Positions 3,078 through 63,057 are shown, counted from the first letter of the stretch. The stretch is DNA of 64,000 bases from Alphaproteobacteria bacterium (GCA_900768845.1 CAAGEK010000020.1:14011-78010); one strand, 5' to 3'. Translations and numbers: made by a program. Notes: a model not told the origin generated them from the letters alone.

Positions 3078-4493
3078 ATGATTTTCAGCTCTTTTACGTT
3101 TTTATGGTGTTTCCTGCCGCCCTTGCTGGCTTTGTATTTTTTAATTAAAAGCCCCGTTTTGAAAAACGTCCTGCTTTTGGCGGCCAGCATTTTGTTTTAT
3201 GCTTGGGGCGAACCGCTGTATGTTTTTTTAATGATGGCTTCGGTTATCCTGAACTTCTTTTTCGGGCTGGCCATCGGCAGGGCGGAAACGCAGAAAAGCC
3301 GTAAAATCCTGACCCTGTTCGGCACGATCGTCAATATCGCGATTTTAATGCATTTCAAATATACGGACTTCATTATCGAAAATATGAACCTGTTATTGCA
3401 AATGCAGATTGACGCGAAGGAAATTCCCCTGCCGATCGGCATTTCTTTCTATACGTTCCAAGCCATTTCCTACCTGATCGACATTTACCGCGGAGAGGTC
3501 AAAGCCCAGAAAAGCATCCTGAAAATGGGGTTGTATATCGCGTTTTTCCCCCAAATGGTCGCAGGCCCCATCATCAAATACCACGACATCGAGCCCGAAT
3601 TGGAAAAACGCACGGTTACGCCGGAAATGTTCAATTACGGCGTATCGCGTTTCATTTTCGGTTTTGCAAAAAAAATCCTGCTGGCGAACATCACGGGCAA
3701 AGCCGCCGATACGTTGTTTGCTTTGGAAGCCGGCGATTTGTCGACACCCGCGGCTTGGGTCGGAGCGATAGCCTATTCCATGCAAATTTATTTCGATTTT
3801 TCCGGATATTCCGATATGGCCATCGGTTTGGGCAGAATGTTCGGTTTCACGTTTCAGGAAAACTTCAATTACCCTTACATTTCCTCTTCCATTCGCGAAT
3901 TTTGGCAACGTTGGCACATTTCTTTGGCCACATGGTTCAAACAATACGTTTATATCCCGCTGGGCGGCAGCCGGAAAGGCGATTTCCGCACATATCTGAA
4001 CACGATGATTGTTTTCTTTTTAACGGGTTTATGGCACGGCGCGGCATGGAACTTCGTCCTGTGGGGTGTTTGGAACGGGTTGTTCATCTTGTTTGAAAGG
4101 GCGATTCAATTCGACAAGTATGTCAAAATCCGCCTTATCCGCCATATTTACACATTATGGGTCGTCGTCGTCGGAATGGTCATTTTCCGCACGAATTCAA
4201 TCAAAGAGGCGATCACTTATCTGACGCATATGTTCAACTTTAAAAACATGGACGTTTCCTATTTGAACATTCTGGTGACGAACGAGCCGCGTTTGGCGAT
4301 CGTCGCGTCGTTGCTGTGTTGCGGGCCTCTGGTCGTGTTCTGGCGCAAGTACGGGGAAAGGATTTTGTCTTTCGTTCCCGCCGCCGTAAAAGGCACATGG
4401 CCTGTCGAACTGACGAAAATCGCGCTGTTCATCCTGTCGATTCTGGCTTTGGCCGGCAATTCGTACAATCCGTTCATTTATTTCAGGTTCTGA
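3078..4493 (+). CDS. MBOAT-family membrane-bound O-acyltransferase (AlgI/DltB/PatA-like)
   Basis: Polytopic 471-aa protein with FYAWGEP, FFPQMVAGPI, YTFQAISYLID and WQRWHISLATWFKQYVYIPLGGSR motifs typical of MBOAT acyltransferases. RBS AGAGG is present. Confidence 0.85.
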   Translation: MIFSSFTFLWCFLPPLLALYFLIKSPVLKNVLLLAASILFYAWGEPLYVFLMMASVILNFFFGLAIGRAETQKSRKILTLFGTIVNIAILMHFKYTDFIIENMNLLLQMQIDAKEIPLPIGISFYTFQAISYLIDIYRGEVKAQKSILKMGLYIAFFPQMVAGPIIKYHDIEPELEKRTVTPEMFNYGVSRFIFGFAKKILLANITGKAADTLFALEAGDLSTPAAWVGAIAYSMQIYFDFSGYSDMAIGLGRMFGFTFQENFNYPYISSSIREFWQRWHISLATWFKQYVYIPLGGSRKGDFRTYLNTMIVFFLTGLWHGAAWNFVLWGVWNGLFILFERAIQFDKYVKIRLIRHIYTLWVVVVGMVIFRTNSIKEAITYLTHMFNFKNMDVSYLNILVTNEPRLAIVASLLCCGPLVVFWRKYGERILSFVPAAVKGTWPVELTKIALFILSILALAGNSYNPFIYFRF

Positions 4494-4498
4494 GCCTT

Positions 4499-5611
4499 AT
4501 GAAAAAACTGAGCGCATCCGTTTATGTATTTCTGGCCGTGATTGCGGTTTGCTTCGCGTTTAACTTCGTCCCGCTTGAGGACGACGATCAATCGGAAAAC
4601 AGGCGCAAAGCCCCTTTCCCGACGGAAATTTCAACAAAATTCCCCTCTTTGTTCGACAGGTTTTACGAAGACCATTTCCCGTTCCGCTCCTTTTTGATTA
4701 AAAAGTTCTACACCGTCAGGAAAAGTATCAAAGACAACCCGAAAGTCATCATCGGAGTTGATGATTGGATTTTTTTGAATTCCTCCCCGTTCAATACATA
4801 CGCGAAATCGGATAACACGCTGGGCGATTTCACGGGTAAAACCCTGTTGAACGACGAAGACGCCAAAGCTTTTGAATCAAAAATCGAAGCGCAAAAGAAA
4901 TATTTCGATGAACGCGGCATCCGTTTTCTGATTATGATTCCGCCCAATAAAATGACGGTTTATCCGGAATTCACCCCCAAAGGATACCGCAAGTTGCGCA
5001 CAATGCGATCCCGTTACGAGCAAACGGAGGAGGCCATCCGCAAAGCCGACGTTCCGTTCATCAACCTGAAAAAGCTGTTTGAAAAGGAAAAAGGCGAATA
5101 TCCGCTGTATTACAGAACGGACACCCACTGGAACGATTTGGGGGCATACATCGCTTTTCGCAATTTGTTGAACGTGTTGCACGCCGAAACGCCGGAAATC
5201 GAACGCATAGAAATCGCCGACAGCGAATGCGGCGACAATTACCGTATGTCCGGATTGTCCGATGCGTGTTCCGATTTGCATCACAGGCCGGTTTTAAGCT
5301 TTAAAAACGACGAAGGACAATGCGTTTTGCAAGAAAACGCCGGACATCTGATTTGCACGAACGCTTCCGCGCCGTACCGCGAACATATCGTCATCGGCAG
5401 GGATTCCTTTACGGAAAAGCTGATCCCCTATTTCAGCCGTTTATTCAAAAGGACGGTTTTCATCTGGTCGGGCAAGGTGTCCGACAAGGAAATGTTCGAT
5501 ATCATCGAAACGGAAAAGCCCGATATCGTCCTGTACAACTACGCCGAGCGCAACGTGTCCCAAACGGCCAAGGACGTTCCGGTTCAAAAAAACGGGAAAA
5601 ATGAAAAATGA
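4499..5611 (+). CDS. AlgJ/AlgX-like (DHHW/SGNH-like) periplasmic O-acetyltransferase paralog A, N-terminal TM anchor
   Basis: ATG at 4499 immediately follows the MBOAT stop (4491-4493); the listed ORF 4316.. is an upstream extension overlapping the MBOAT gene. Motifs FPFRSFLIKKF, LGDFTGKTLLNDED, PPNK..YPE, LYYRTDTHW, CGDNYRMS, GRDSF. Confidence 0.75.
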   Translation: MKKLSASVYVFLAVIAVCFAFNFVPLEDDDQSENRRKAPFPTEISTKFPSLFDRFYEDHFPFRSFLIKKFYTVRKSIKDNPKVIIGVDDWIFLNSSPFNTYAKSDNTLGDFTGKTLLNDEDAKAFESKIEAQKKYFDERGIRFLIMIPPNKMTVYPEFTPKGYRKLRTMRSRYEQTEEAIRKADVPFINLKKLFEKEKGEYPLYYRTDTHWNDLGAYIAFRNLLNVLHAETPEIERIEIADSECGDNYRMSGLSDACSDLHHRPVLSFKNDEGQCVLQENAGHLICTNASAPYREHIVIGRDSFTEKLIPYFSRLFKRTVFIWSGKVSDKEMFDIIETEKPDIVLYNYAERNVSQTAKDVPVQKNGKNEK

Positions 5612-6837
5612 AGAACCTGTCCCTTTCAAGCCGGATTTTCCTGATAACCGTCCTGTTGTTCGGGGCGTTGACTTACCTGTTGTTCGGAGAAATTTTTTAC
5701 TACCGCCTGACGGGACACAGCGAAGAAAGGCTGTTTTTCTCCTTTCCGACGAAGGTTGATTCCGAAAACCGCGCAAAGGCGAAGTTCCCTTCAAAGCTTG
5801 ACGCACGTTTTCCCAAAGACTTCGATATCTTTTTCAACGACGCTTTCCCGTTCCGTTCAAAACTGATCAAACGTTTCTTCAAACTCCGCGTTTTGCTCAG
5901 CGACAACCCGAACGTCATCCCCGGAAAGGAAAACTGGTTCTTTTTCAATTCGTCCTCTTTAGACATTTACAAAAAAACGAACAACACGCTGGGCGATTTT
6001 ACGGGTAAAACTTTGCTCAACGACGAAGACAAAGAAACGTTCACCCGTCACATGGCCTGTCAGAAAAAATTCTTTGACGGTCTCGGTATGCAATTCGTCA
6101 TCATGACTCCGCCCAACAGGAAACCCGTTTACCCCGAACACCTGCCGGAACGTTACCGCAATCAGGGCGTCGCTTACGGCCGTTACGAACAGGTTGCGGA
6201 CATTTTAAAATCCTTGGGCATCGATTTCGTGGATGAAAAAGCCGCGCTGATAAACAACAAGGACAAAGGCGAGCTGTACTATAAAACGGATACGCACTGG
6301 ACGTTTTTAGGGGCTCATTACGGTTTTGCGGCTTTGGCCAAGCATTTCGGATACGATTTTCCGCCCGTCGTTTCCGTCAACCGGACGACCATTGAATGCG
6401 GCGATATGTACCGTATGTCGGCTTCGCTGGTCAAAACGTGCGCGGACGTCAGCGACACGCCCGTTTTGCCGCCGGTAAAAGCCGAAGGGAAATGCGATCT
6501 GGCGGACACGAAGCGCGTCGTTTGCGAAAACGCCGAAGCCCCCGTTCAAAAAAGCGTTGTCATCGTGCGCGATTCCATGTTCGACTTTTTATATCCCCAA
6601 GTCGCCCGCACCTTTAAAAAAACGTTGCTGTTATGGCGTTCCAAACACACCGAACGCGAACTGGCCGAAGAAATCAAAGCGTCCGGAGCCGACGCCGTCA
6701 TTTATGAACAAGGCGAACGCTTTATGCTGGAAATGCAAAACGAAGCGATTTGTCCCGACGACATTATCAAAGTCCCCCGTTTGGATCAACGCCCGCCCGC
6801 CGATGCGCAAAAAGGACGGGAAGGGGTTGAAAAATGA
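5608..6837 (+). CDS. AlgJ/AlgX-like O-acetyltransferase paralog B
   Basis: ATGA overlap with paralog A. Same motif set (FPFRSKLIKRF, LGDFTGKTLLNDED, LYYKTDTHWT, CGDMYRMS, VRDSMFDFLY). Confidence 0.75.
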   Translation: MKNLSLSSRIFLITVLLFGALTYLLFGEIFYYRLTGHSEERLFFSFPTKVDSENRAKAKFPSKLDARFPKDFDIFFNDAFPFRSKLIKRFFKLRVLLSDNPNVIPGKENWFFFNSSSLDIYKKTNNTLGDFTGKTLLNDEDKETFTRHMACQKKFFDGLGMQFVIMTPPNRKPVYPEHLPERYRNQGVAYGRYEQVADILKSLGIDFVDEKAALINNKDKGELYYKTDTHWTFLGAHYGFAALAKHFGYDFPPVVSVNRTTIECGDMYRMSASLVKTCADVSDTPVLPPVKAEGKCDLADTKRVVCENAEAPVQKSVVIVRDSMFDFLYPQVARTFKKTLLLWRSKHTERELAEEIKASGADAVIYEQGERFMLEMQNEAICPDDIIKVPRLDQRPPADAQKGREGVEK

Positions 6838-13743: not shown

Positions 13744-13821
13744 TGGCGCGCCCAAGAAGATTCGAACTCCTAGCCTTCTGATCCGTAGTCAGATGCTCTA
13801 TCCAGTTGAGCTATGGGCGCC
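13744..13821 (-). tRNA. tRNA-Arg (anticodon ACG), CCA encoded
   Basis: Minus-strand sequence GGCGCCCATAGCTCAACTGGATAGAGCATCTGACTACGGATCAGAAGGCTAGGAGTTCGAATCTTCTTGGGCGCGCCA. Cloverleaf with anticodon loop CUACGGA and T-arm GGTTCGAATCC-like. Confidence 0.9.
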
Positions 13822-56517: not shown

Positions 56518-58407
56518 ATGTCTGAACAAATGCCTAAATGGGACTTAAACGACTTATACCCCGGCATGGATTCGCCGGAATTGAAAAAAGACATCGCCGC
56601 CGTCAGCGCAGGGGCTTTGAAGTTTGAAACCCGCTACAAGGGAAAACTGGAAGGCGCAACCCCCGACGAGTTCGGAAATTCCATTGAAGAATATGAAAAA
56701 TTAAACGAAACGCTCGGCCGTTTGGATGCGTATTCCTATATGTTGCATTCAACGAACATGAACGATGCGAAAATTTCGACCTTTTACCAAAACATTCAGG
56801 AAAAATCCAACGACGTTGCGAACAAAATGCTGTTCTTTGAATTGGAACTGAACGGTTTGTCGGATGAACAAATCGCCGAAAAAATGGTTTCCCCCAAAGC
56901 CAAAAATTACGAGCCGTGGGTCAAAAACGTCCGCGCCGCCCGCGATCACAAGCTGTCCGAAGATCTGGAAAAAATGTTGCACGAAAAATCCGTCGTCGGC
57001 GCGGCGGCTTGGAACCGTCTGTTTGATGAGACGATGGCTTCCTTGCGCTTTAACATCGACGGCCGGATGGTCACCGAACCCGAAGCCATGAATATCATCT
57101 CGTCTTCGCCCGACGCCGAAAAACGTCATGCCGCCGGTGCGGAAGTCGACCGCGTCATGAAGCAAAATATGCCCGTTTTCGCGTTGATTACGAACACTTT
57201 GGCAAAAGACAAGCAGATCGAAGACGAATGGCGCGGCTATAAACGTCCCATTTCCGCCAGAAACGTTGAAAACCAAGTCGAAGACGAAGTCGTTGACGCG
57301 CTGGTTGATACGGTCGTTGCAAACCACGAAGACGTTTCCCACCGCTTTTACAAAATGAAAGCCGATTGGCTGGGCGTTGACAAACTGGAATACTGGGACA
57401 GGAACGCTCCGTTGCCCGATATGCCCGAAAAGAAATACAGCTGGGAGGAAGCCAAAAACATCGTTTTGGCGGCTTATAACGAATTTTCGCCCGAAATGGC
57501 GGCAATCGGCAAAAAGTTCTTTGACAACAAGTGGATCGACGTCGCTCCCAAAGAAGGCAAGGAAGGCGGCGCGTATGCCCATCCGACCGTTCCGTCGGCG
57601 CATCCTTATCTGATGTTGAACTTTATGGGCAAAACGAACGACGTTATGACTTTGGCGCACGAACTGGGGCACGGCGTGCATCAGTATCTGGCCAATTCCC
57701 AAGGGATGTTGAAAGCCAATACGCCGATTACTCTGGCGGAAACGGCTTCGATTTTCGGCGAGATGGTGACCTTCCAATATATGTTGAAGCACGAAAAGGA
57801 TCCGAAGCAGAAATTCGCGATGTTGGCAGAAAAGACCGGAAGTATGCTCAACTCCACGGTTCGCCAGATTGCTTTCCACCGTTTTGAAACACAAGTTCAC
57901 ACGGAACGCCGCGAAAAGGGCGAAGTCGCCCCCGAACGGCTGGACAAGATTTGGACGCAGGTTCAAACGGATGCTTTGGGCCCCGCCGTTAAAAACGATG
58001 AACGTTCCAGTTCTTCATGGGCGACGATTCCCCATTTGATCCATACGCCGTTCTATGTTTACGGTTATGCGTTCGGCGATTGTCTGGTCAATTCGCTTTA
58101 CAGCGTCCATCAGGAAGGCAAAGTCGAAGACTTCCCCAAAAAGTATATGGAAATGCTGTCCAAAGGCGGATCCGAACGTCATCAGCAGATGCTCAAACCC
58201 TTCGGGCTTGACGCGTCCAAACCCGATTTCTGGCAGAAAGGTTTGAACGTTGTCAAAGGCTTTGTCGATCAGTTGGAAGTCCTGACGGACGAGTTGGGAA
58301 TGAACCGTAACAAAGCCAAACAGACCGGCAAACAAGCCGAAACGAAACAAACGCCCGCCGCACAAAAAGGCGTCGCCAAAAAAGTTTCGGACTTAAAATC
58401 CAGATAA
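56518..58407 (+). CDS. pepF: M3-family oligoendopeptidase (PepF-like)
   Basis: HELGHGVH zinc-binding motif with downstream Glu; 629 aa. Confidence 0.8.
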   Translation: MSEQMPKWDLNDLYPGMDSPELKKDIAAVSAGALKFETRYKGKLEGATPDEFGNSIEEYEKLNETLGRLDAYSYMLHSTNMNDAKISTFYQNIQEKSNDVANKMLFFELELNGLSDEQIAEKMVSPKAKNYEPWVKNVRAARDHKLSEDLEKMLHEKSVVGAAAWNRLFDETMASLRFNIDGRMVTEPEAMNIISSSPDAEKRHAAGAEVDRVMKQNMPVFALITNTLAKDKQIEDEWRGYKRPISARNVENQVEDEVVDALVDTVVANHEDVSHRFYKMKADWLGVDKLEYWDRNAPLPDMPEKKYSWEEAKNIVLAAYNEFSPEMAAIGKKFFDNKWIDVAPKEGKEGGAYAHPTVPSAHPYLMLNFMGKTNDVMTLAHELGHGVHQYLANSQGMLKANTPITLAETASIFGEMVTFQYMLKHEKDPKQKFAMLAEKTGSMLNSTVRQIAFHRFETQVHTERREKGEVAPERLDKIWTQVQTDALGPAVKNDERSSSSWATIPHLIHTPFYVYGYAFGDCLVNSLYSVHQEGKVEDFPKKYMEMLSKGGSERHQQMLKPFGLDASKPDFWQKGLNVVKGFVDQLEVLTDELGMNRNKAKQTGKQAETKQTPAAQKGVAKKVSDLKSR

Positions 58408-58426
58408 GGCGTTAATTTCTAAAAAA

Positions 58427-58459
58427 GAGCGGCGGTTTCCATAAACTGCCGCTTTTTTG
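58427..58459 (+). terminator. Rho-independent terminator after pepF
   Basis: GAGCGGCGG ... CTGCCGCT hairpin followed by TTTTTT. Confidence 0.65.
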
Positions 58460-58544
58460 TCGTCCGTAAACACCCCATCGGATGTTACGAAAATGATTGT
58501 TTTAGATTTTTCAATCTCTTAAATTATTAAAAAAGGAGTTTATC

Positions 58545-59009
58545 ATGAATAAAATTTTATTTTTGTTTTTTGTTTCCTTAATTTCGTCTTGCACGGCACG
58601 GCAAGAGGAAAACATAACTTCCGACACTCGGCAAATAACAGAGCATTCCGAGCAACATACAGAACAAAATAAAAAAGATATTCCGGAAAAGCAAAAAAAT
58701 AAAAAATGTATGGATATGGAGCATTTTAAAATTATTCAAGTATTTCAGGATAATTCCGCTCTGGCAAAAAAATGCGACTCCATATCAGATAAGTATTGTT
58801 CTTTCCCTGTTGTTTTACTAACGCCTCAGCAAGGGGTTGATTACTACGACGATATGTATGTCGGACTGCCTGATAACAAGTGCGCCGTACAAGACGGCGT
58901 ATACCGTTATGAAACAAGGCAAGAAATTATAAAAACAGTTCCCCGAATTAAATGGGATTATAAATATCCCGTTAAAAAAAAGAACAAACGAAGCAAAAAC
59001 GGAATTTAA
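58545..59009 (+). CDS. Hypothetical lipoprotein (AT-rich islet)
   Basis: Strong RBS AAAAGGAG, lipobox LISSCTA. Lys/Asn-rich 154-aa protein. Markedly lower GC than the flanks. Confidence 0.55.
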   Translation: MNKILFLFFVSLISSCTARQEENITSDTRQITEHSEQHTEQNKKDIPEKQKNKKCMDMEHFKIIQVFQDNSALAKKCDSISDKYCSFPVVLLTPQQGVDYYDDMYVGLPDNKCAVQDGVYRYETRQEIIKTVPRIKWDYKYPVKKKNKRSKNGI

Positions 59010-59067
59010 ATTATCGTATTCATTAAATGCGAAAACGCTTATCGTTCGGAGAAAAAAACGAAAATCC

Positions 59068-59355
59068 ATGAAAACAGGACTTCAAAAAATCCTTGACGCT
59101 TGGAAAACCGAACAGGAAAGCGGACGGGAAATCGAATGTTTCCTGTTCAAATACGGTAACGTAACGTTCGATTTCGCAGGAAGATTTTTTGCGTTCGTTT
59201 ATGACGATGCAAAAACATTTTCCGTGAATTACGACTATGTTTCTTTTGAGGAAATGCTTGACTCCGTCATCATCGAAACGGGGAAATCTCCTCGCCGGAT
59301 GTTGGAAGAATTGAGTGAAATTGACGTTTCTCTAAGCATTTCCCCCTTCTTTTGA
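59068..59355 (+). CDS. Hypothetical small cytoplasmic protein (95 aa), AT-rich islet
   Basis: ORF between the lipoprotein and the papain-like gene; weak RBS; no motifs. Confidence 0.4.
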   Translation: MKTGLQKILDAWKTEQESGREIECFLFKYGNVTFDFAGRFFAFVYDDAKTFSVNYDYVSFEEMLDSVIIETGKSPRRMLEELSEIDVSLSISPFF

Positions 59356-59490
59356 GCGTAATGCTCAAATTTGGCTTCATTAAAAAGGCGGATACGGTTT
59401 TCCGCCTTTCCATTTTAAAAAATTTTTTCCATTTTTCTTTTTTTGACAAAAATTTCTGATAAAATATGGAGAGTCAGGAGAATTTCCATT

Positions 59491-60231
59491 ATGCCGAACG
59501 AAACCGAAAAGAATAAAAATTGCCGGATCACGCTGTATTTAGATACTCCGAAGCCTTTGTTGAGGCCGTTCAAGGATTTTACCAAGCACAACCAACTGGA
59601 AAGCCTGATCGTAAGCGGCGCGCCGGATATTACGGCTTTGACGGGACACGTCTTCGTCGGATTGACAGACGAAAAAGGGCGGGAAGAACGTTGGGGCTTT
59701 TGGGGGGAACGGACTTCCCCTTATCACGCAATCGCAGGAACGAAAGGCATTTTCGATAAAGAGGAAACCTCTTCCCCGTATAACGAAGCCATCGTGTGGA
59801 ACGTCACGCCGAAGCAGTTGGAAGCCGCCAAAAACGCCGTAAAAGAAAACAGAGAAGCCCCCGGAACTTACAGATTGTTTGAAAGAAACTGCACAACGGT
59901 GGCTCTTGGCGTGGTCAAAGCCGCCGGAATCACCGGTTTGCCGTCGTCAAAATGGGGCATGACCCCGCACGCTTTGGTATTGAAAAAACGGTGGATGTTG
60001 GCGAAACGGCGGTTGGAAGTCGCCCGTTTCAAGGTAAAGAATCTTTTCTCTCCTTTGTTCGGAAAAGAGAAAATCCCAAACGAGGAATTACTGAAATCCC
60101 TTCGCTCTAAACCGTTGCCGGTTCCCATCAACAACGGAATGAAAGCTTTCCGTCAAAACAGGGACAACGACGAAACAAAGCCTCTCGACGTTTCAAAAAT
60201 CATTGCTTCCATTTCAAAAATCCGTTCTTGA
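59491..60231 (+). CDS. Permuted papain-like (NlpC/P60 superfamily, LRAT/YiiX-like) putative amidase/acyltransferase with His-His-Cys arrangement
   Basis: AGGAG RBS. TGHVFVGL (His), SPYHAIAG (His), then ~60 aa later YRLFERNCTTVALGVVKAAGI (compare the LRAT-family NCEHF catalytic Cys motif). The listed ORF starts earlier at 59443; 59491 is preferred because of the RBS. Confidence 0.5.
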   Translation: MPNETEKNKNCRITLYLDTPKPLLRPFKDFTKHNQLESLIVSGAPDITALTGHVFVGLTDEKGREERWGFWGERTSPYHAIAGTKGIFDKEETSSPYNEAIVWNVTPKQLEAAKNAVKENREAPGTYRLFERNCTTVALGVVKAAGITGLPSSKWGMTPHALVLKKRWMLAKRRLEVARFKVKNLFSPLFGKEKIPNEELLKSLRSKPLPVPINNGMKAFRQNRDNDETKPLDVSKIIASISKIRS

Positions 60232-60764
60232 AAACCGCCCGTAAGCTTTTCAATGCCCTTCCTTGCGTTTTTTCGTTACGGAACAGTTATAAAAAAGTGT
60301 CCCACGCGCAAAACATACGGCTCTTTCTCAACGGGCATAGCTCTCATATTACCGGTTATACCTGAATGATGTTTTGTTTGCGTCGGTGCGAACAATTCGT
60401 TACGGATTCCCCTGTCCGGTGTCACTTGATTTGATGCGGCATCTTTTTTATGCCGGATATACCGACCGTATCCACAATTCTTTGCTTCGATATTTGTTTT
60501 TAATATTACTCCATTATTCATAAATCGGAAGACTGCTTTTCCTTTTCAGCCGTCCCGCCCATCTTCGGCGGTATTCCGCTGCAAGACACGCTTCCGCTTT
60601 CGGAAGATTCAGTCCTTTCCATTTGTATAATTTCCTTAACGTTTGGTCTATTTTGCATTTGACTTCAATATTCGCAGGTTCATCAACCTACTGCATTATA
60701 ACAAAGGAGTTTTTTCCGCACATCGCCGAAAGAGTTCCGGAACCACGCACCTTGCGGCGCAATA

Positions 60765-60801
60765 CAAAAAAACAGCTTCGACTGCCGGCCGAAGCTGTTT
60801 T
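60765..60801 (-). terminator. Rho-independent terminator downstream of the GGDEF gene (bidirectional hairpin)
   Basis: CAGCTTCG-ACTGCCGGC-CGAAGCTG hairpin flanked by an A-run (plus) and T-run (minus), 13 nt beyond the GGDEF stop at 60814. Confidence 0.65.
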
Positions 60802-60813
60802 CCATCATTTCCG

Positions 60814-63057
60814 TCACGATACGGGCGGTTTCGGAGGAACAACGCCGCCCGCAGGCATCTTGGGAACTTTCACCCGTCCGGCGACGGGGACTTTGCGAAT
60901 GCCCCCCGCGGGTATTTTCTTTATCATTTTCTTGACCGGCGGCGGCGGAGGGGGAGGAGAAACCGGCTCGGAAACCGCAGGCAAATCCTCATCCGGCAAC
61001 TCATCGTCAAGAGTGCCGCTTACCGGCGCAACGACGTCGTCATCGTCGGGAAGCTCGTCTTTCTCTTCCACGATATGCGGCTTATCGGCGGCTCCCGCAT
61101 ACCCGAAAGGATTATCGTCATCATCGTCGGGAAGATCCGGCTCCGTTTCACCGGAAACATCCGGCATTCCGAGCGGAGCCGGTTCGTTTGCGTGACCAAA
61201 CGGATCGGATACGGGACTTTGCGACGCGGGACGGGAAGGTGTTTCGTCGGGCAAATCGTCGTCATATAAATCATCCAAAGAAACGCCCGCCGACATTTTT
61301 CCTTTCTTGGGAGCGGGTTCGTCATCGTCGTCATCCAAAGGAGCGTCATCGTCAAGATAAGTCCCGCCGCTTTGTCCCGCATAAGCCGTCGGCAAAGCGT
61401 CGTCGGGAATCGGAGAAACCGGCGCGGACGAAGCGGCCGGCGCAGGCGCAGGAACGGAAGACGGCGTAAAGTAATACAGCGGGGCTTCCAATGCTTTTTT
61501 AATTTCATCGTCCACCGGAGCGACCGTATCTTTGTCCGCGCCGTCCTCTCTGCGGATAATGACTCTGTTACGGCCGTTCTCCTTGGCGACATACAGGGCT
61601 TCGTCAGCCATTTTCAACATTTCTTCAACATTATCGGTGACTTCCGAAGAAACAAGGCCGATACTGACGGTGAAACGGACGTCTTCGTTTTGTTCGTTTT
61701 TCACAACAATCTTGGAAATGTTGATTCTCAAACGTTCCGCAACGCGGTGCGCATTTTCCAAAGAAACTTCCGGCAGTAAAATGACGAATTCCTCACCGCC
61801 GAAACGGGCGACAATGTCCGATTCGCGCAACGTCATGCGGCAACAATTCGCCAACGCCTGCAAAACCAAATCGCCGACAGCGTGCCCGTGTGTGTCGTTG
61901 ACGTTTTTAAAGTGATCCGCATCAATCATAAACAAACAGAACGGATGTTGATAACGTCTGGAACGCTGAACCTCTTTCATGGCCAGTTCCTCGAACTGGC
62001 GACGGTTGTAACAATTCGTCAGCGGATCACGCGTCGCCTGATCGAACAGCTTCATTTCCTTTTTCTTGCGACCCGTAATGTCTTGGAACGCCATATAAAG
62101 GGCGATTTCATATTCGAAATCGATGACGCGCACGGATAACAACAGCCAGAACGGTTCGCCTTTGCGCGGCTTAACCAAAATTTCAAAATCGTCAACGACC
62201 GGTTTCTTTTCAAGCCTTGCCAGCAATTCCCGCCGGCTGGACGGATCGGCAAGGTAATCGACCGTTTTGAAATTCCCCGGATGTTTGACGTCCAAACCGA
62301 ACAAAGCTCCCGCCTTGTCATTAATCAACATTAAACGGTCGTCTTTCAATCGGGAAATGATAATGGGGGAAGGCGATTTTTGAATCATCAAACGCAAACG
62401 GTTTTTGCTTTCCTCCGCTTCCTGAACCAGTTCTCCGAAACGGTGAGCCAGCAGGTTGTTTGAAATCAAAATCAAACCGCACGTCACGCCGATATACAAA
62501 AACGTTTCAAGCATCGGCGAAATCAGGTTGCGCCCCCATGCGAACAAATCCAACAGGTTGAACAGCGCGATGAAAATCAGCATCCATCCCGTCAGCACAA
62601 AGCCCAGAGAGGTCTTTAAGGATTTCTTGTTCCACAGGGATGCGGCCAAAGCACCGTATCCCGCCGTCGAAACGGCAAAAGAAAGCGTCAGCATATTCAT
62701 ATCGCGCAAAACGCCGACGACGTACCAGCTCCACCCGACGGTACAAAGAGCCGCGGCGATTAAAACCGTGCCGTTGAGTTTTTTCATCCCTTTGATCATC
62801 AGCGCGCCGGCAATCAGGCACACGGCGGAAACCAGACGCAAAGACAAGGTCACGAAGTAATATGATCCTTCGTCAAAAACGGGAATGGCGAAAATAAGCA
62901 GTTTTGCCGCAAAAACGCACAAAAAACCGTAAAATACGGCAGAAATCCCTTGGGAAAAATCCGACTGATCTTTTAAATACCGCAGTGCCAGCAAAATGCC
63001 TGCCAGCCCGAACAAGACCGGCGTCAAGCCCGCAGACGAATTTAAAGCCATGTTCAT
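60814..63057 (-). CDS. Membrane-anchored diguanylate cyclase (multi-TM sensor + PAS-like + GGDEF with intact GGEEF) carrying a ~250-aa acidic/proline-rich disordered C-terminal tail
   Basis: N-terminal ~8 hydrophobic helices, RFGGEEFVILLPE active-site motif, RxxD-like I-site context. The tail is rich in DDDD/LPDE/PAPAP and ends PPPPPPPVKKMIKKIPAGG. Confidence 0.8.
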   Translation of the reverse strand: MNMALNSSAGLTPVLFGLAGILLALRYLKDQSDFSQGISAVFYGFLCVFAAKLLIFAIPVFDEGSYYFVTLSLRLVSAVCLIAGALMIKGMKKLNGTVLIAAALCTVGWSWYVVGVLRDMNMLTLSFAVSTAGYGALAASLWNKKSLKTSLGFVLTGWMLIFIALFNLLDLFAWGRNLISPMLETFLYIGVTCGLILISNNLLAHRFGELVQEAEESKNRLRLMIQKSPSPIIISRLKDDRLMLINDKAGALFGLDVKHPGNFKTVDYLADPSSRRELLARLEKKPVVDDFEILVKPRKGEPFWLLLSVRVIDFEYEIALYMAFQDITGRKKKEMKLFDQATRDPLTNCYNRRQFEELAMKEVQRSRRYQHPFCLFMIDADHFKNVNDTHGHAVGDLVLQALANCCRMTLRESDIVARFGGEEFVILLPEVSLENAHRVAERLRINISKIVVKNEQNEDVRFTVSIGLVSSEVTDNVEEMLKMADEALYVAKENGRNRVIIRREDGADKDTVAPVDDEIKKALEAPLYYFTPSSVPAPAPAASSAPVSPIPDDALPTAYAGQSGGTYLDDDAPLDDDDDEPAPKKGKMSAGVSLDDLYDDDLPDETPSRPASQSPVSDPFGHANEPAPLGMPDVSGETEPDLPDDDDDNPFGYAGAADKPHIVEEKDELPDDDDVVAPVSGTLDDELPDEDLPAVSEPVSPPPPPPPVKKMIKKIPAGGIRKVPVAGRVKVPKMPAGGVVPPKPPVS

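Follow-up and report, generated by a model that had tools for sequence, protein, structure and literature searches.

The locus considered here raises two questions: was the AT-rich DNA between the gene pepF and a gene for a GGDEF protein imported as a block of three genes, and what does the third of these genes do? The locus lies in a 64,000-nucleotide stretch of DNA (the window) from an Alphaproteobacteria bacterium (GCA_900768845.1, CAAGEK010000020.1:14011-78010). A first-pass annotation had described positions 58460-60770 as a horizontally acquired islet carrying a lipoprotein gene (ORF1), a gene for a small protein (ORF2) and a gene for a permuted papain-like enzyme of the LRAT or YiiX type (ORF3), possibly a toxin with an immunity-like partner. 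Our comparisons divide the locus differently. The AT-rich stretch is an ordinary insertion of about 1 kb. ORF3 is not part of its cargo; it has been inherited vertically and has transcription signals of its own. We hold the evolutionary and fold statements, taken jointly, with high confidence. The complete explanation, in which insertion into the slot upstream of ORF3 is combined with a native, permuted papain-like and probably lipid-directed ORF3, is the one we favour, with moderate confidence.

Composition and borders of the locus

The three open reading frames (ORFs) are present as described, all on the plus strand: ORF1 at 58545-59009, ORF2 at 59068-59355 and ORF3 at 59491-60231. ORF3 codes for 246 residues from the ATG at 59491, a start common to all homologues, and not for 247. 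Both flanking terminators are also there, the pepF hairpin at 58429-58458 and the hairpin of the GGDEF gene at 60769-60801, and no integrase, tRNA or bounding repeats were found at the borders, as had been stated. The sole tRNA of the window lies at 13744-13820, and a repeat scan found no direct or bounding repeats around the locus. Plasmid and phage collections gave zero matches for the locus by tblastn and blastn, Rfam gave nothing credible in 58380-60900 at the gathering score or at E<=1, and there are no paralogs of ORF1, ORF2 or ORF3 elsewhere in the 64 kb.

The GC content of the window is 51.0% on average, and that of its 465-bp segments has a mean of 0.51 with a standard deviation of 0.043. 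The lowest of these segments is ORF1 itself, with 35.1%; fewer than 0.1% of all 465-bp segments are as GC-poor. ORF2 has 41.3% GC and the three short intergenic pieces around ORF1 and ORF2 have 31-35%, while ORF3 has 48.9% and the spacer 3′ of it (60232-60813) 44.3%. At third codon positions (GC3) the value for the window's 34 long ORFs is 0.614±0.036, with a range of 0.54-0.68. ORF1 (0.335) and ORF2 (0.448) deviate from this, but ORF3 (0.575) lies within the native range, and the anomaly is therefore narrower than the 2.3 kb claimed for it. The drop in GC is real and spans about 58,458-59,490, not 58,460-60,770. Deviant composition combined with absence from related genomes, the two marks of an islet, is found only in 58459-59434, which holds ORF1 and ORF2, and not in ORF3.

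Evolution of the slot upstream of ORF3

It is instructive to trace this part of the chromosome across related genomes. The order pepF-ORF3-GGDEF is common to four species: that of the window, that of loci L001, L002 and L012, that of L007, and that of L013 ('Acetobacter sp. CAG:977'). Both pepF and the GGDEF gene are syntenic in L001, L007, L012 and L013. The same arrangement is present in all contigs that match the window exactly or at 97-98.5% identity (L008, L064-66), so it is fixed in the window species.

Where the species differ is the slot that follows the pepF terminator and precedes the ORF3 promoter, in the window the AT-rich segment 58459-59434. In L001 and L002, and also in L012 (ORF3 68% identical), the order yicC-gmk-pepF-ORF3-GGDEF is kept, and neither ORF1 nor ORF2 is called. 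In blastn, homology to L001 runs as far as the end of the pepF terminator (58457) and restarts at 59435, 56 nt before the ORF3 start. The slot of L001 has 334 bp instead, without homology to 58459-59434 apart from a remnant of ORF2, present also in L012 (29 codons, 59% identity, E 1.4e-4). In L007 (ORF3 76% identity) the slot measures 2.7 kb and contains a restriction-modification (R-M) system together with an intact homologue of ORF2 (72% identity); here homology ends at 58458 and restarts at 59066, the ORF2 start. Upstream of ORF3, homology to L001 and L007 restarts at 59435/59436. In L013 the distance from pepF to the ORF3 orthologue is only 102 nt, ORF1 and ORF2 are absent, and the pepF terminator directly abuts the motif TTTTTTGTCAAAAATTTCTGATAAAAT. 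This motif is also found in front of ORF3 in L001, in L007 and in the window (59438-59465).

This upstream motif, TTTTTTG(A/T)CAAAAATTT(C/T)TGATAAAAT, is conserved in L001, L007 and L013. In the window it includes TTGACA at 59443-59448 and an extended -10 element, TGaTAAAAT, at 59457-59465 on the plus strand, and it would act as the ORF3 promoter.

The R-M system of L007 is a type II pair at 3211-5207, with both genes on the minus strand: a MerR/HTH-fused C5 DNA methylase and an EcoO109I-like endonuclease. GC is 34% in the L007 slot versus 46% for the L007 locus.

The most economical history would begin with a compact pepF-ORF3-GGDEF arrangement. ORF2 would have been gained in the common ancestor of three of the species and later have decayed in one of them, and independent insertions would have occurred upstream of ORF2: one species would have received the R-M system, and the window species the ORF1 fragment (58459-59065). 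The ORF1 fragment, of about 600 bp, appears from the alignments to be the newest insertion, placed in front of an older, lineage-restricted ORF2. The spacer between these two transcription signals, the pepF terminator and the promoter of ORF3, is indel-prone, and the DNA that it has taken up differs from species to species. The proposal of a horizontally acquired islet thus survives for two genes of the three. ORF1 and ORF2 have foreign composition and are missing from relatives, ORF1 from L001, L007 and L013, with ORF2 variable; ORF3, native in composition and syntenic in four species, is always present. The locus offers a small, clean example of an intergenic hotspot that holds an R-M system, a lipoprotein gene fragment or nothing in sister species.

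Fold and catalytic residues of ORF3

If ORF3 is a native gene, then we can ask what kind of protein it encodes. We found 24 close homologues among 5.8 billion protein clusters and aligned 22 of them. Invariant in this alignment are His53 in TGHxFxGL (codon 59647-59649), Tyr97-Asn98-Glu99, Tyr127 and Asn133-Cys134 (codons 59887-59892), along with many other positions. Conservation extends to 46 paralogous copies and 120 distant relatives, both described in the next section: His53 is kept in 46/46 and 119/120, Cys134 in 46/46 and 120/120, Asn133 in 46/46 and 100/120. Glu65 (codon 59683-59685) is retained in 45 of the 46 paralogs, but in only 35 of the 120 distant relatives. The positions invariant across all 46 copies are the His, the Asn-Cys pair, Gln109, Tyr127, Arg167 and Pro208 (window numbering). 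Of the His-His-Cys order noticed at first, the first His (GHVFVGL, His53) and the Cys of the NC motif (Cys134) are invariant, but the second His (YHAIAG, His78) is unconserved and is replaced by Lys in most homologues.

The AF2 model of ORF3 (pLDDT 85.7, pTM 0.85) has strands at 11-18, 53-59, 65-72, 84-90 and 99-105, followed by helices at 107-122 and 134-144. His53 opens strand 2, Glu65 opens strand 3, and Cys134 forms the N-terminus of helix 134-144. As modelled, this succession of strands and helices is the circularly permuted papain/NlpC-P60 order, and the view of ORF3 as a permuted papain-like enzyme, with a conserved His before Asn-Cys, is upheld at the superfamily level. Cys134, His53 and Glu65 would make up the catalytic triad, with His53 as predicted general base. 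Glu65 is probably the third residue, because it is conserved in 45/46 paralogs and its distance from His53 is 12, as in PLAAT/LRAT enzymes. The latter have two His 12 residues apart (His23 and His35 in PLAAT3).

ORF3 consists of a core (about 10-158) and a basic helical extension (159-246). The whole protein has a pI of 9.8, and neither a signal peptide nor a membrane helix was found in it (maximum KD19 1.26). The C-terminal 88 residues are family-specific, with a pI of 10.9 and a 32-residue helix that carries nine Lys/Arg.

Comparison with domain families was done at several levels. The Pfam family Lnb_N/DUF4105 (PF13387) is matched by 22/22 members, with a best E-value of 3e-7, at profile positions 107-153 of 175 only; two orthologues, P0004 and P0005, exceed its cutoff of 22.2 bits with 30.6 and 28.6 bits. 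Peptidase_C97/PPPDE is matched by 12/22 members (best 6e-5), all below the Pfam cutoff (21 vs 29.2 bits) and on the NC helix only, and Pfam TseH by 7/22, sub-threshold. NCBIfam gave nothing for ORF3 or for ORF1-2. Against PDB the family profile matched only the PPPDE chains 2wp7 and 3ebq, at E~2, with the alignment lying on the NC helix. When a broader profile of the domain was used (A4, 43 diverse sequences), TseH (6v98) came out at the top with E 0.019 and with the GH and NC segments in order; PPPDE chains came next, if one disregards a mitochondrial ribosomal protein at rank 2, which is unrelated. The matches that Foldseek gave against PDB and BFVD were only marginal and were headed by picornavirus 2A H-box/NC proteins, among them Aichivirus 2A and other picornavirus polyproteins.

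The label of LRAT or YiiX/C92 has to be given up, as neither Pfam model is matched by ORF3 or its close homologues, and Lnb_N/DUF4105, TseH and PPPDE/C97 are nearer. For C92/YiiX there was no Pfam or NCBIfam match at E<=1 for ORF3 or the 22 homologues, and a phage C92 protein appeared in Foldseek only at rank 48 with E 2.9. The hallmarks of LRAT (PF04970) are absent from ORF3: position 78 is mostly Lys in the family, the motif reads NC[TAS]T[VF]A and not NCEHF, and there is no hydrophobic anchor. The papain-like toxin families of Zhang et al. 2012 that were checked (Tox-NLPC/P60, Tox-PL1, Tox-PL-2 and others) do not fit either, being listed with Cys before His.

Relatives and paralogs of ORF3

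A profile search of 1.84 billion representative proteins gave 251 matches at E<=1e-3. The 120 relatives that cover the core share the signature GHxF..L..G...GFYP...DD...Y.L...NC.tFA, and many of the distant relatives have no Pfam family assigned. An ORF3-like core stands at the C-terminus of RHS-repeat proteins (P0124, P0171, P0176, P0135, P0101), in the Tc-like SpvB/TcdB/RHS protein P0183, and after eCIS_core domains in P0099 and 6 further proteins; one protein with such a core also matches Tox-PAAR-like. To judge by these domain combinations, the ORF3-type domain is a recurrent cargo of polymorphic toxins. The long multi-stretch profile matches P0084, P0131 and P0203 were repetitive artefacts and were discarded.

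Paralogs were collected by a pattern-based scan of one genome per species, and the copy numbers are accordingly a lower bound. There are 46 loci of the family from about 22 assemblies, all from uncultured gut or rumen Alphaproteobacteria except one probably mis-binned contig. The three best-sampled assemblies have at least 5-6 copies each, tandem pairs included. The paralogs fall into groups, each at its own housekeeping site: pepF/GGDEF, class I lysS, enolase, holC-pepA, sufE with a LuxR-type regulator, and GNAT. Their GC content matches that of the host loci. No delivery module (Rhs, PAAR, VgrG, eCIS) and no secretion-system gene lies beside any of the 46 loci, and ORF3 is a stand-alone protein. 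These sequence features indicate that the paralogs are old, vertically inherited and active-looking, and that ORF3 is a lineage-restricted, multi-paralog member of the permuted NlpC/P60 enzymes. The family is previously undescribed: no Pfam or NCBIfam model covers it, and its named members are all 'hypothetical'.

Some details of individual loci can be added. The contig that is probably mis-binned, L025 (CAVCSV010000003.1), is labelled 'Limosilactobacillus gorillae' and has the class I lysS and ORF3-family synteny of Alphaproteobacteria metagenome-assembled genomes. Tandem pairs in the lysS-linked group, 14-74 nt apart, occur at L014 118-1601, L019 5980-7463 and L020 1811-3288, and second copies are found a few kb away in L021, L022 and L024. 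Beside paralogs of the lysS group a secreted protein of 520-584 aa recurs (L019 3966-5720, L028 6811-8373 and 7 other loci), with a Cys-rich N-terminal part, many GNAxV-type repeats and no Pfam family.

Possible function of ORF3

What reaction could such a protein perform? ORF3 would be a soluble, basic, cytoplasmic enzyme in which Cys134, after Asn133, is the predicted nucleophile and His53 is predicted to activate it. By analogy with the phospholipases TseH and Tox-Act1 and with the lipoprotein N-acyltransferase Lnb, an acyl-cysteine intermediate would be formed. The donor would be an ester or an amide, with a membrane lipid as the most probable substrate, and the acyl group would then be released by hydrolysis or transferred to an acceptor. 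The basic C-terminal helices (159-246) may allow ORF3 to dock on a negatively charged surface, for instance the inner membrane leaflet. In this scheme the substrate class, the third residue of the triad, the part played by the C-terminal extension and the location in the cytoplasm are what we infer.

TseH, Tox-Act1, DUF4105/Lnb, LRAT and YiiX have been grouped into a permuted, lipid-directed branch of NlpC/P60 (PMC12994826). Following this analogy we tentatively propose that ORF3 is an acyl-cysteine hydrolase or transferase acting on lipid, a working proposal to which we give somewhat less than even weight. Three points weigh against it. The ORF3 of the window reaches 16 bits on Lnb_N, below the cutoff, with only the NC helix covered. 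The docking on the membrane is speculative, because the basic C-terminal helix is not among the strongest amphipathic segments of ORF3. In addition, PPPDE enzymes are isopeptidases, and therefore a protein or peptide substrate still has to be considered.

This last point leads to an alternative in which ORF3 would work in the cytoplasm on a protein or peptide rather than on lipid, as a PPPDE/DeSI-like or gamma-glutamyl/amidase-like peptidase or isopeptidase. It would account for the Peptidase_C97 matches of 12 members, for 2wp7 and 3ebq as the sole PDB sequence matches of the family profile, and for a soluble ORF3 with no hydrophobic anchor. However, all C97 matches stay below the cutoff and cover the NC helix only, Lnb_N matches more members and is the sole family reached above its cutoff, the broad profile puts TseH first, and the permuted branch has been argued to be lipid-directed (PMC12994826). 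We regard this alternative as unlikely.

To the same low level of probability we assign the idea that the paralogs are an arsenal of effectors, exported by an unrecognised route into host or competitor cells, where they would attack membranes or ubiquitin-like conjugates. Immunity would then be unneeded, the enzyme being harmless in the producer's cytoplasm. Elsewhere the domain is delivered as part of secreted toxins, host-associated bacteria carry the family in several copies, some of them tandem duplicates, and the PPPDE-type matches recall eukaryote-directed isopeptidases. Moreover, the phospholipase Tox-Act1 is toxic in the periplasm only, not in the cytoplasm (PMC12994826). Yet there is no signal peptide, no Rhs/PAAR/eCIS fusion and no secretion-system neighbour at the 46 loci, whose neighbours are housekeeping genes; each paralog group has a stable chromosomal position across genera, unlike fast-turnover effectors; and no plasmid or phage matches were found.

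ORF2 and the small genes upstream of ORF3 paralogs

Does the lipid-directed enzyme that we favour need a partner? The obvious candidate, ORF2, encodes an acidic orphan protein (95 aa, pI 4.5) in which no membrane helix was found, and only 2 homologue clusters were detected among the 5.8 billion protein clusters. Its profile signal, DUF4287, is sub-threshold and comes via the homologue P0026 only (22.3 bits vs cutoff 27), and its AF2 model, built from a 3-sequence alignment, is unusable (pLDDT 48). Downstream of ORF2, on the plus strand, a terminator-like hairpin with a GGCGGA/TCCGCC stem and a T-rich tail was read from the sequence at 59387-59416; an automated hairpin scan did not list it and gave only a second, weaker hairpin at 59351-59369.

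The proposal that ORF2 is an immunity-like partner does not fit these data, since ORF2 is degraded or absent where ORF3 is intact, and the hairpin and promoter-like motif separate the two genes. ORF2 appears to be dispensable and not an obligatory immunity or antitoxin partner of ORF3, because it has decayed in L001 and L012, is absent from L013, and is followed by the hairpin before ORF3 begins.

In three ORF3 paralog groups, that of ORF2 included, a small acidic protein is encoded immediately before the paralog and in the same direction. Among them, L053-L057 (about 5630-6002) encode a 122-aa protein of pI 4.2 with a gap of about 4 nt to the paralog, and L021, L023 and L047 (for example L021 2804-3301) encode a 165-aa protein of pI 4.6 with a gap of 27 nt. 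In L032-L036 (for example L033 6693-7295) the gene of a 200-aa basic protein overlaps the stop codon of the ORF3 paralog. None of the 122-, 165- and 200-aa proteins has a Pfam match. A single hidden partner family was considered and rejected, as the hhalign probability among the acidic proteins is below 1%. No partner gene is common to all paralog groups, and most groups have no small acidic neighbour.

One could combine these observations with the toxin relatives of the core. A toxin-type domain would then have been domesticated and multiplied (at least 5-6 paralogs, with a basic C-terminal module) for intracellular acyl remodelling or for export, and the upstream acidic proteins would be group-specific inhibitors or chaperones. 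We mention this as a doubtful extension of the main proposal.

The least probable of the explanations is a toxin with its immunity or antitoxin gene on an acquired islet, in which ORF3 would be a toxic hydrolase neutralised by ORF2. In its favour, the ORF3 core has relatives among the C-terminal toxin domains of Rhs, Tc-like, PAAR-like and eCIS-core proteins, an acidic ORF2 faces a basic ORF3 as in many toxin-antitoxin pairs, and two other paralog groups have a small acidic upstream gene and a third a gene overlapping the stop codon. Against it, ORF3 is native in composition and syntenic in four species, it keeps its catalytic residues beside a 29-codon remnant of ORF2 (L001, L012) or no ORF2 at all (L013), a hairpin and a conserved promoter-like motif lie between the genes, the small neighbours of different paralog groups have no homology that hhalign could detect and are missing from most groups, ORF2 has no membrane helix, unlike Imm-Act1, the immunity protein of Tox-Act1, which has two (PMC12994826), and PADLOC gave no match for ORF1-3. 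With ORF3 native and syntenic and ORF2 dispensable, the reading of the locus as toxin and immunity cargo falls, and the false lead of an imported three-gene toxin islet is removed.

ORF1, flanking genes and the 3′ spacer

ORF1 is a 3′-truncated lipoprotein gene. Its N-terminus, MNKILFLFFVSLISS-C16, has a predicted signal peptide and a lipobox (LISS-C16) that fits [LVI][ASTVI][GAS]C, and Cys16 is kept in at least 90% of 21 aligned homologues, which agrees with the early description of ORF1 as a lipoprotein gene. The family comprises about 40 clusters, mostly of about 210 aa, from uncultured Alphaproteobacteria of the same kind and in varied chromosomal contexts; its GC content is 28-35% in every host examined, even inside a locus of 54.6% GC. 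The copy in the window has 154 aa and lacks the C-terminal 75 or so residues of the family with their conserved Cys. Substitutions among strains have no clear third-position bias, in numbers too few to decide, and PHROGs gave signal-peptide-type matches only. ORF1 seems to be a truncated passenger of doubtful function. Elsewhere, at L058 5643-6440 and L062 5731-6543, a full-length gene of the family is directly followed by a gene for a protein with NERD and topoisomerase-type zinc-ribbon domains, a pairing that thus recurs in two genomes.

The left neighbour, pepF (56518-58407, plus strand), encodes oligoendopeptidase F of the M3 family (Pfam Peptidase_M3 1.2e-48, Peptidase_M3_N 5.3e-19). Its intrinsic terminator at 58429-58458, read from the sequence, has a 7-bp stem (58429-58435/58446-58452) followed by T6. 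The right neighbour (60814-63057, minus strand) is a PAS-GGDEF diguanylate cyclase (Pfam GGDEF 4.5e-46, PAS 5.9e-07). The C-terminal third of this protein (60814-61545, minus strand) is a low-complexity tail of about 240 residues, rich in Asp and Pro, with D runs, a PPPPPPP stretch and then a basic Pro-rich end, which is unusual among diguanylate cyclases. Its orthologues are similar in overall length, with 734 aa in L001 and 729 aa in L007. The tail explains the local rise of GC to 55-59%. The hairpin at 60769-60801 (inverted repeat I16: 12 nt, 100% complementary, 9-nt loop) is a perfect 12-bp stem between A- and T-runs; as the terminator of the convergent GGDEF gene, it could also terminate ORF3 transcripts.

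Between ORF3 and this hairpin lies a non-coding spacer (60232-60768). No convincing terminator follows the ORF3 stop codon, so the spacer is possibly a long 3′ untranslated region of ORF3. By blastn, 60232-60813 has no similarity to the corresponding spacers of L001 (203 bp) and L007 (322 bp), and neither six-frame peptides nor sensitive blastn against all loci gave anything. An 81-aa ORF on the minus strand (60276-60521), which public assemblies annotate as a gene and which has 90 aa in some strains, is an annotation artefact; it was rejected as coding because there is an 8-bp indel and no third-position bias among strains that are 97-98.5% identical. The part 60522-60813 varies among strains by 13- and 18-bp indels and by 4-5% substitutions, versus about 1-2% in the flanking genes. 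There is no Rfam match in the spacer, and folding z-scores are -1.3 and +1.3 on the two strands. With its strain indels, no coding bias and no family match, 60232-60770 can stand as non-coding, as first proposed. A perfect 12-nt inverted repeat, AAACCGCCCGTA / TACGGGCGGTTT at 60232-60243 and 60820-60831, brackets the spacer. We judged it a product of chance: about 0.2 such repeats are expected in 2.6 kb, and one arm is inside the GGDEF coding sequence.

Comparison with known systems

The slot between pepF and ORF3 resembles the integration hotspots of the defence-island style in that sister species carry different AT-rich cargo there, a type II R-M system among it. In contrast to such hotspots, it is tiny (0.1-2.7 kb), no integrase, tRNA or repeats were found, and the cargo in the window is a truncated gene without evident use.

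For ORF3 the likenesses are graded. With LRAT/H-rev107 (PLAAT) enzymes and picornavirus 2A proteins it shares the spacing of 12 from the His to a polar residue and an NC Cys some 80-90 residues on; unlike LRAT/PLAAT, it has Glu in place of the second His and no NCEHF, hydrophobic anchor or Pfam LRAT match. PPPDE/DeSI proteins (Peptidase_C97; 2wp7, 3ebq) have the permuted papain fold and the motif Y-x-L-x3-NC-x-T/F in common with it, but they are eukaryotic and viral isopeptidases, and their matches to the ORF3 family are sub-threshold and local.

Lnb/DUF4105, the lipoprotein N-acyltransferase of Bacteroides, is the sole curated family that matches all 22 close homologues. In Lnb the catalytic Cys also follows the His, and its predicted Asn-His-Cys triad was modelled on the Glu-His-Cys triad of TseH (PMC11573676), so that the candidate triad of ORF3 would be of the same Asn/Glu-His-Cys type. 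The difference is in location, since Lnb has a periplasmic domain on five membrane helices (PMC11573676), whereas ORF3 has neither signal peptide nor membrane helix.

TseH (6v98) and Tox-Act1, type VI secretion system (T6SS) effectors of Vibrio cholerae and Salmonella, respectively, have the His before the Cys, the GH motif on a strand and the NC motif at a helix start, as ORF3 does, and the ORF3 core, too, has relatives that serve as toxin cargo. Tox-Act1 (STox_15) is compared here by its description in PMC12994826 only. The distance from His to Cys is 81 residues in ORF3 versus 108 in TseH and Tox-Act1 (PMC11573676, PMC12994826). Unlike these effectors, ORF3 lies outside any T6SS context, and no immunity gene with membrane helices adjoins it. 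Its TseH matches stay below the cutoff, it has additional conserved regions at the N- and C-termini, and its family is chromosomal and multi-paralog. A soluble, multi-paralog version of this enzyme type may be a hint that these gut Alphaproteobacteria possess an acyl-transfer or lipid-remodelling activity so far unrecognised.

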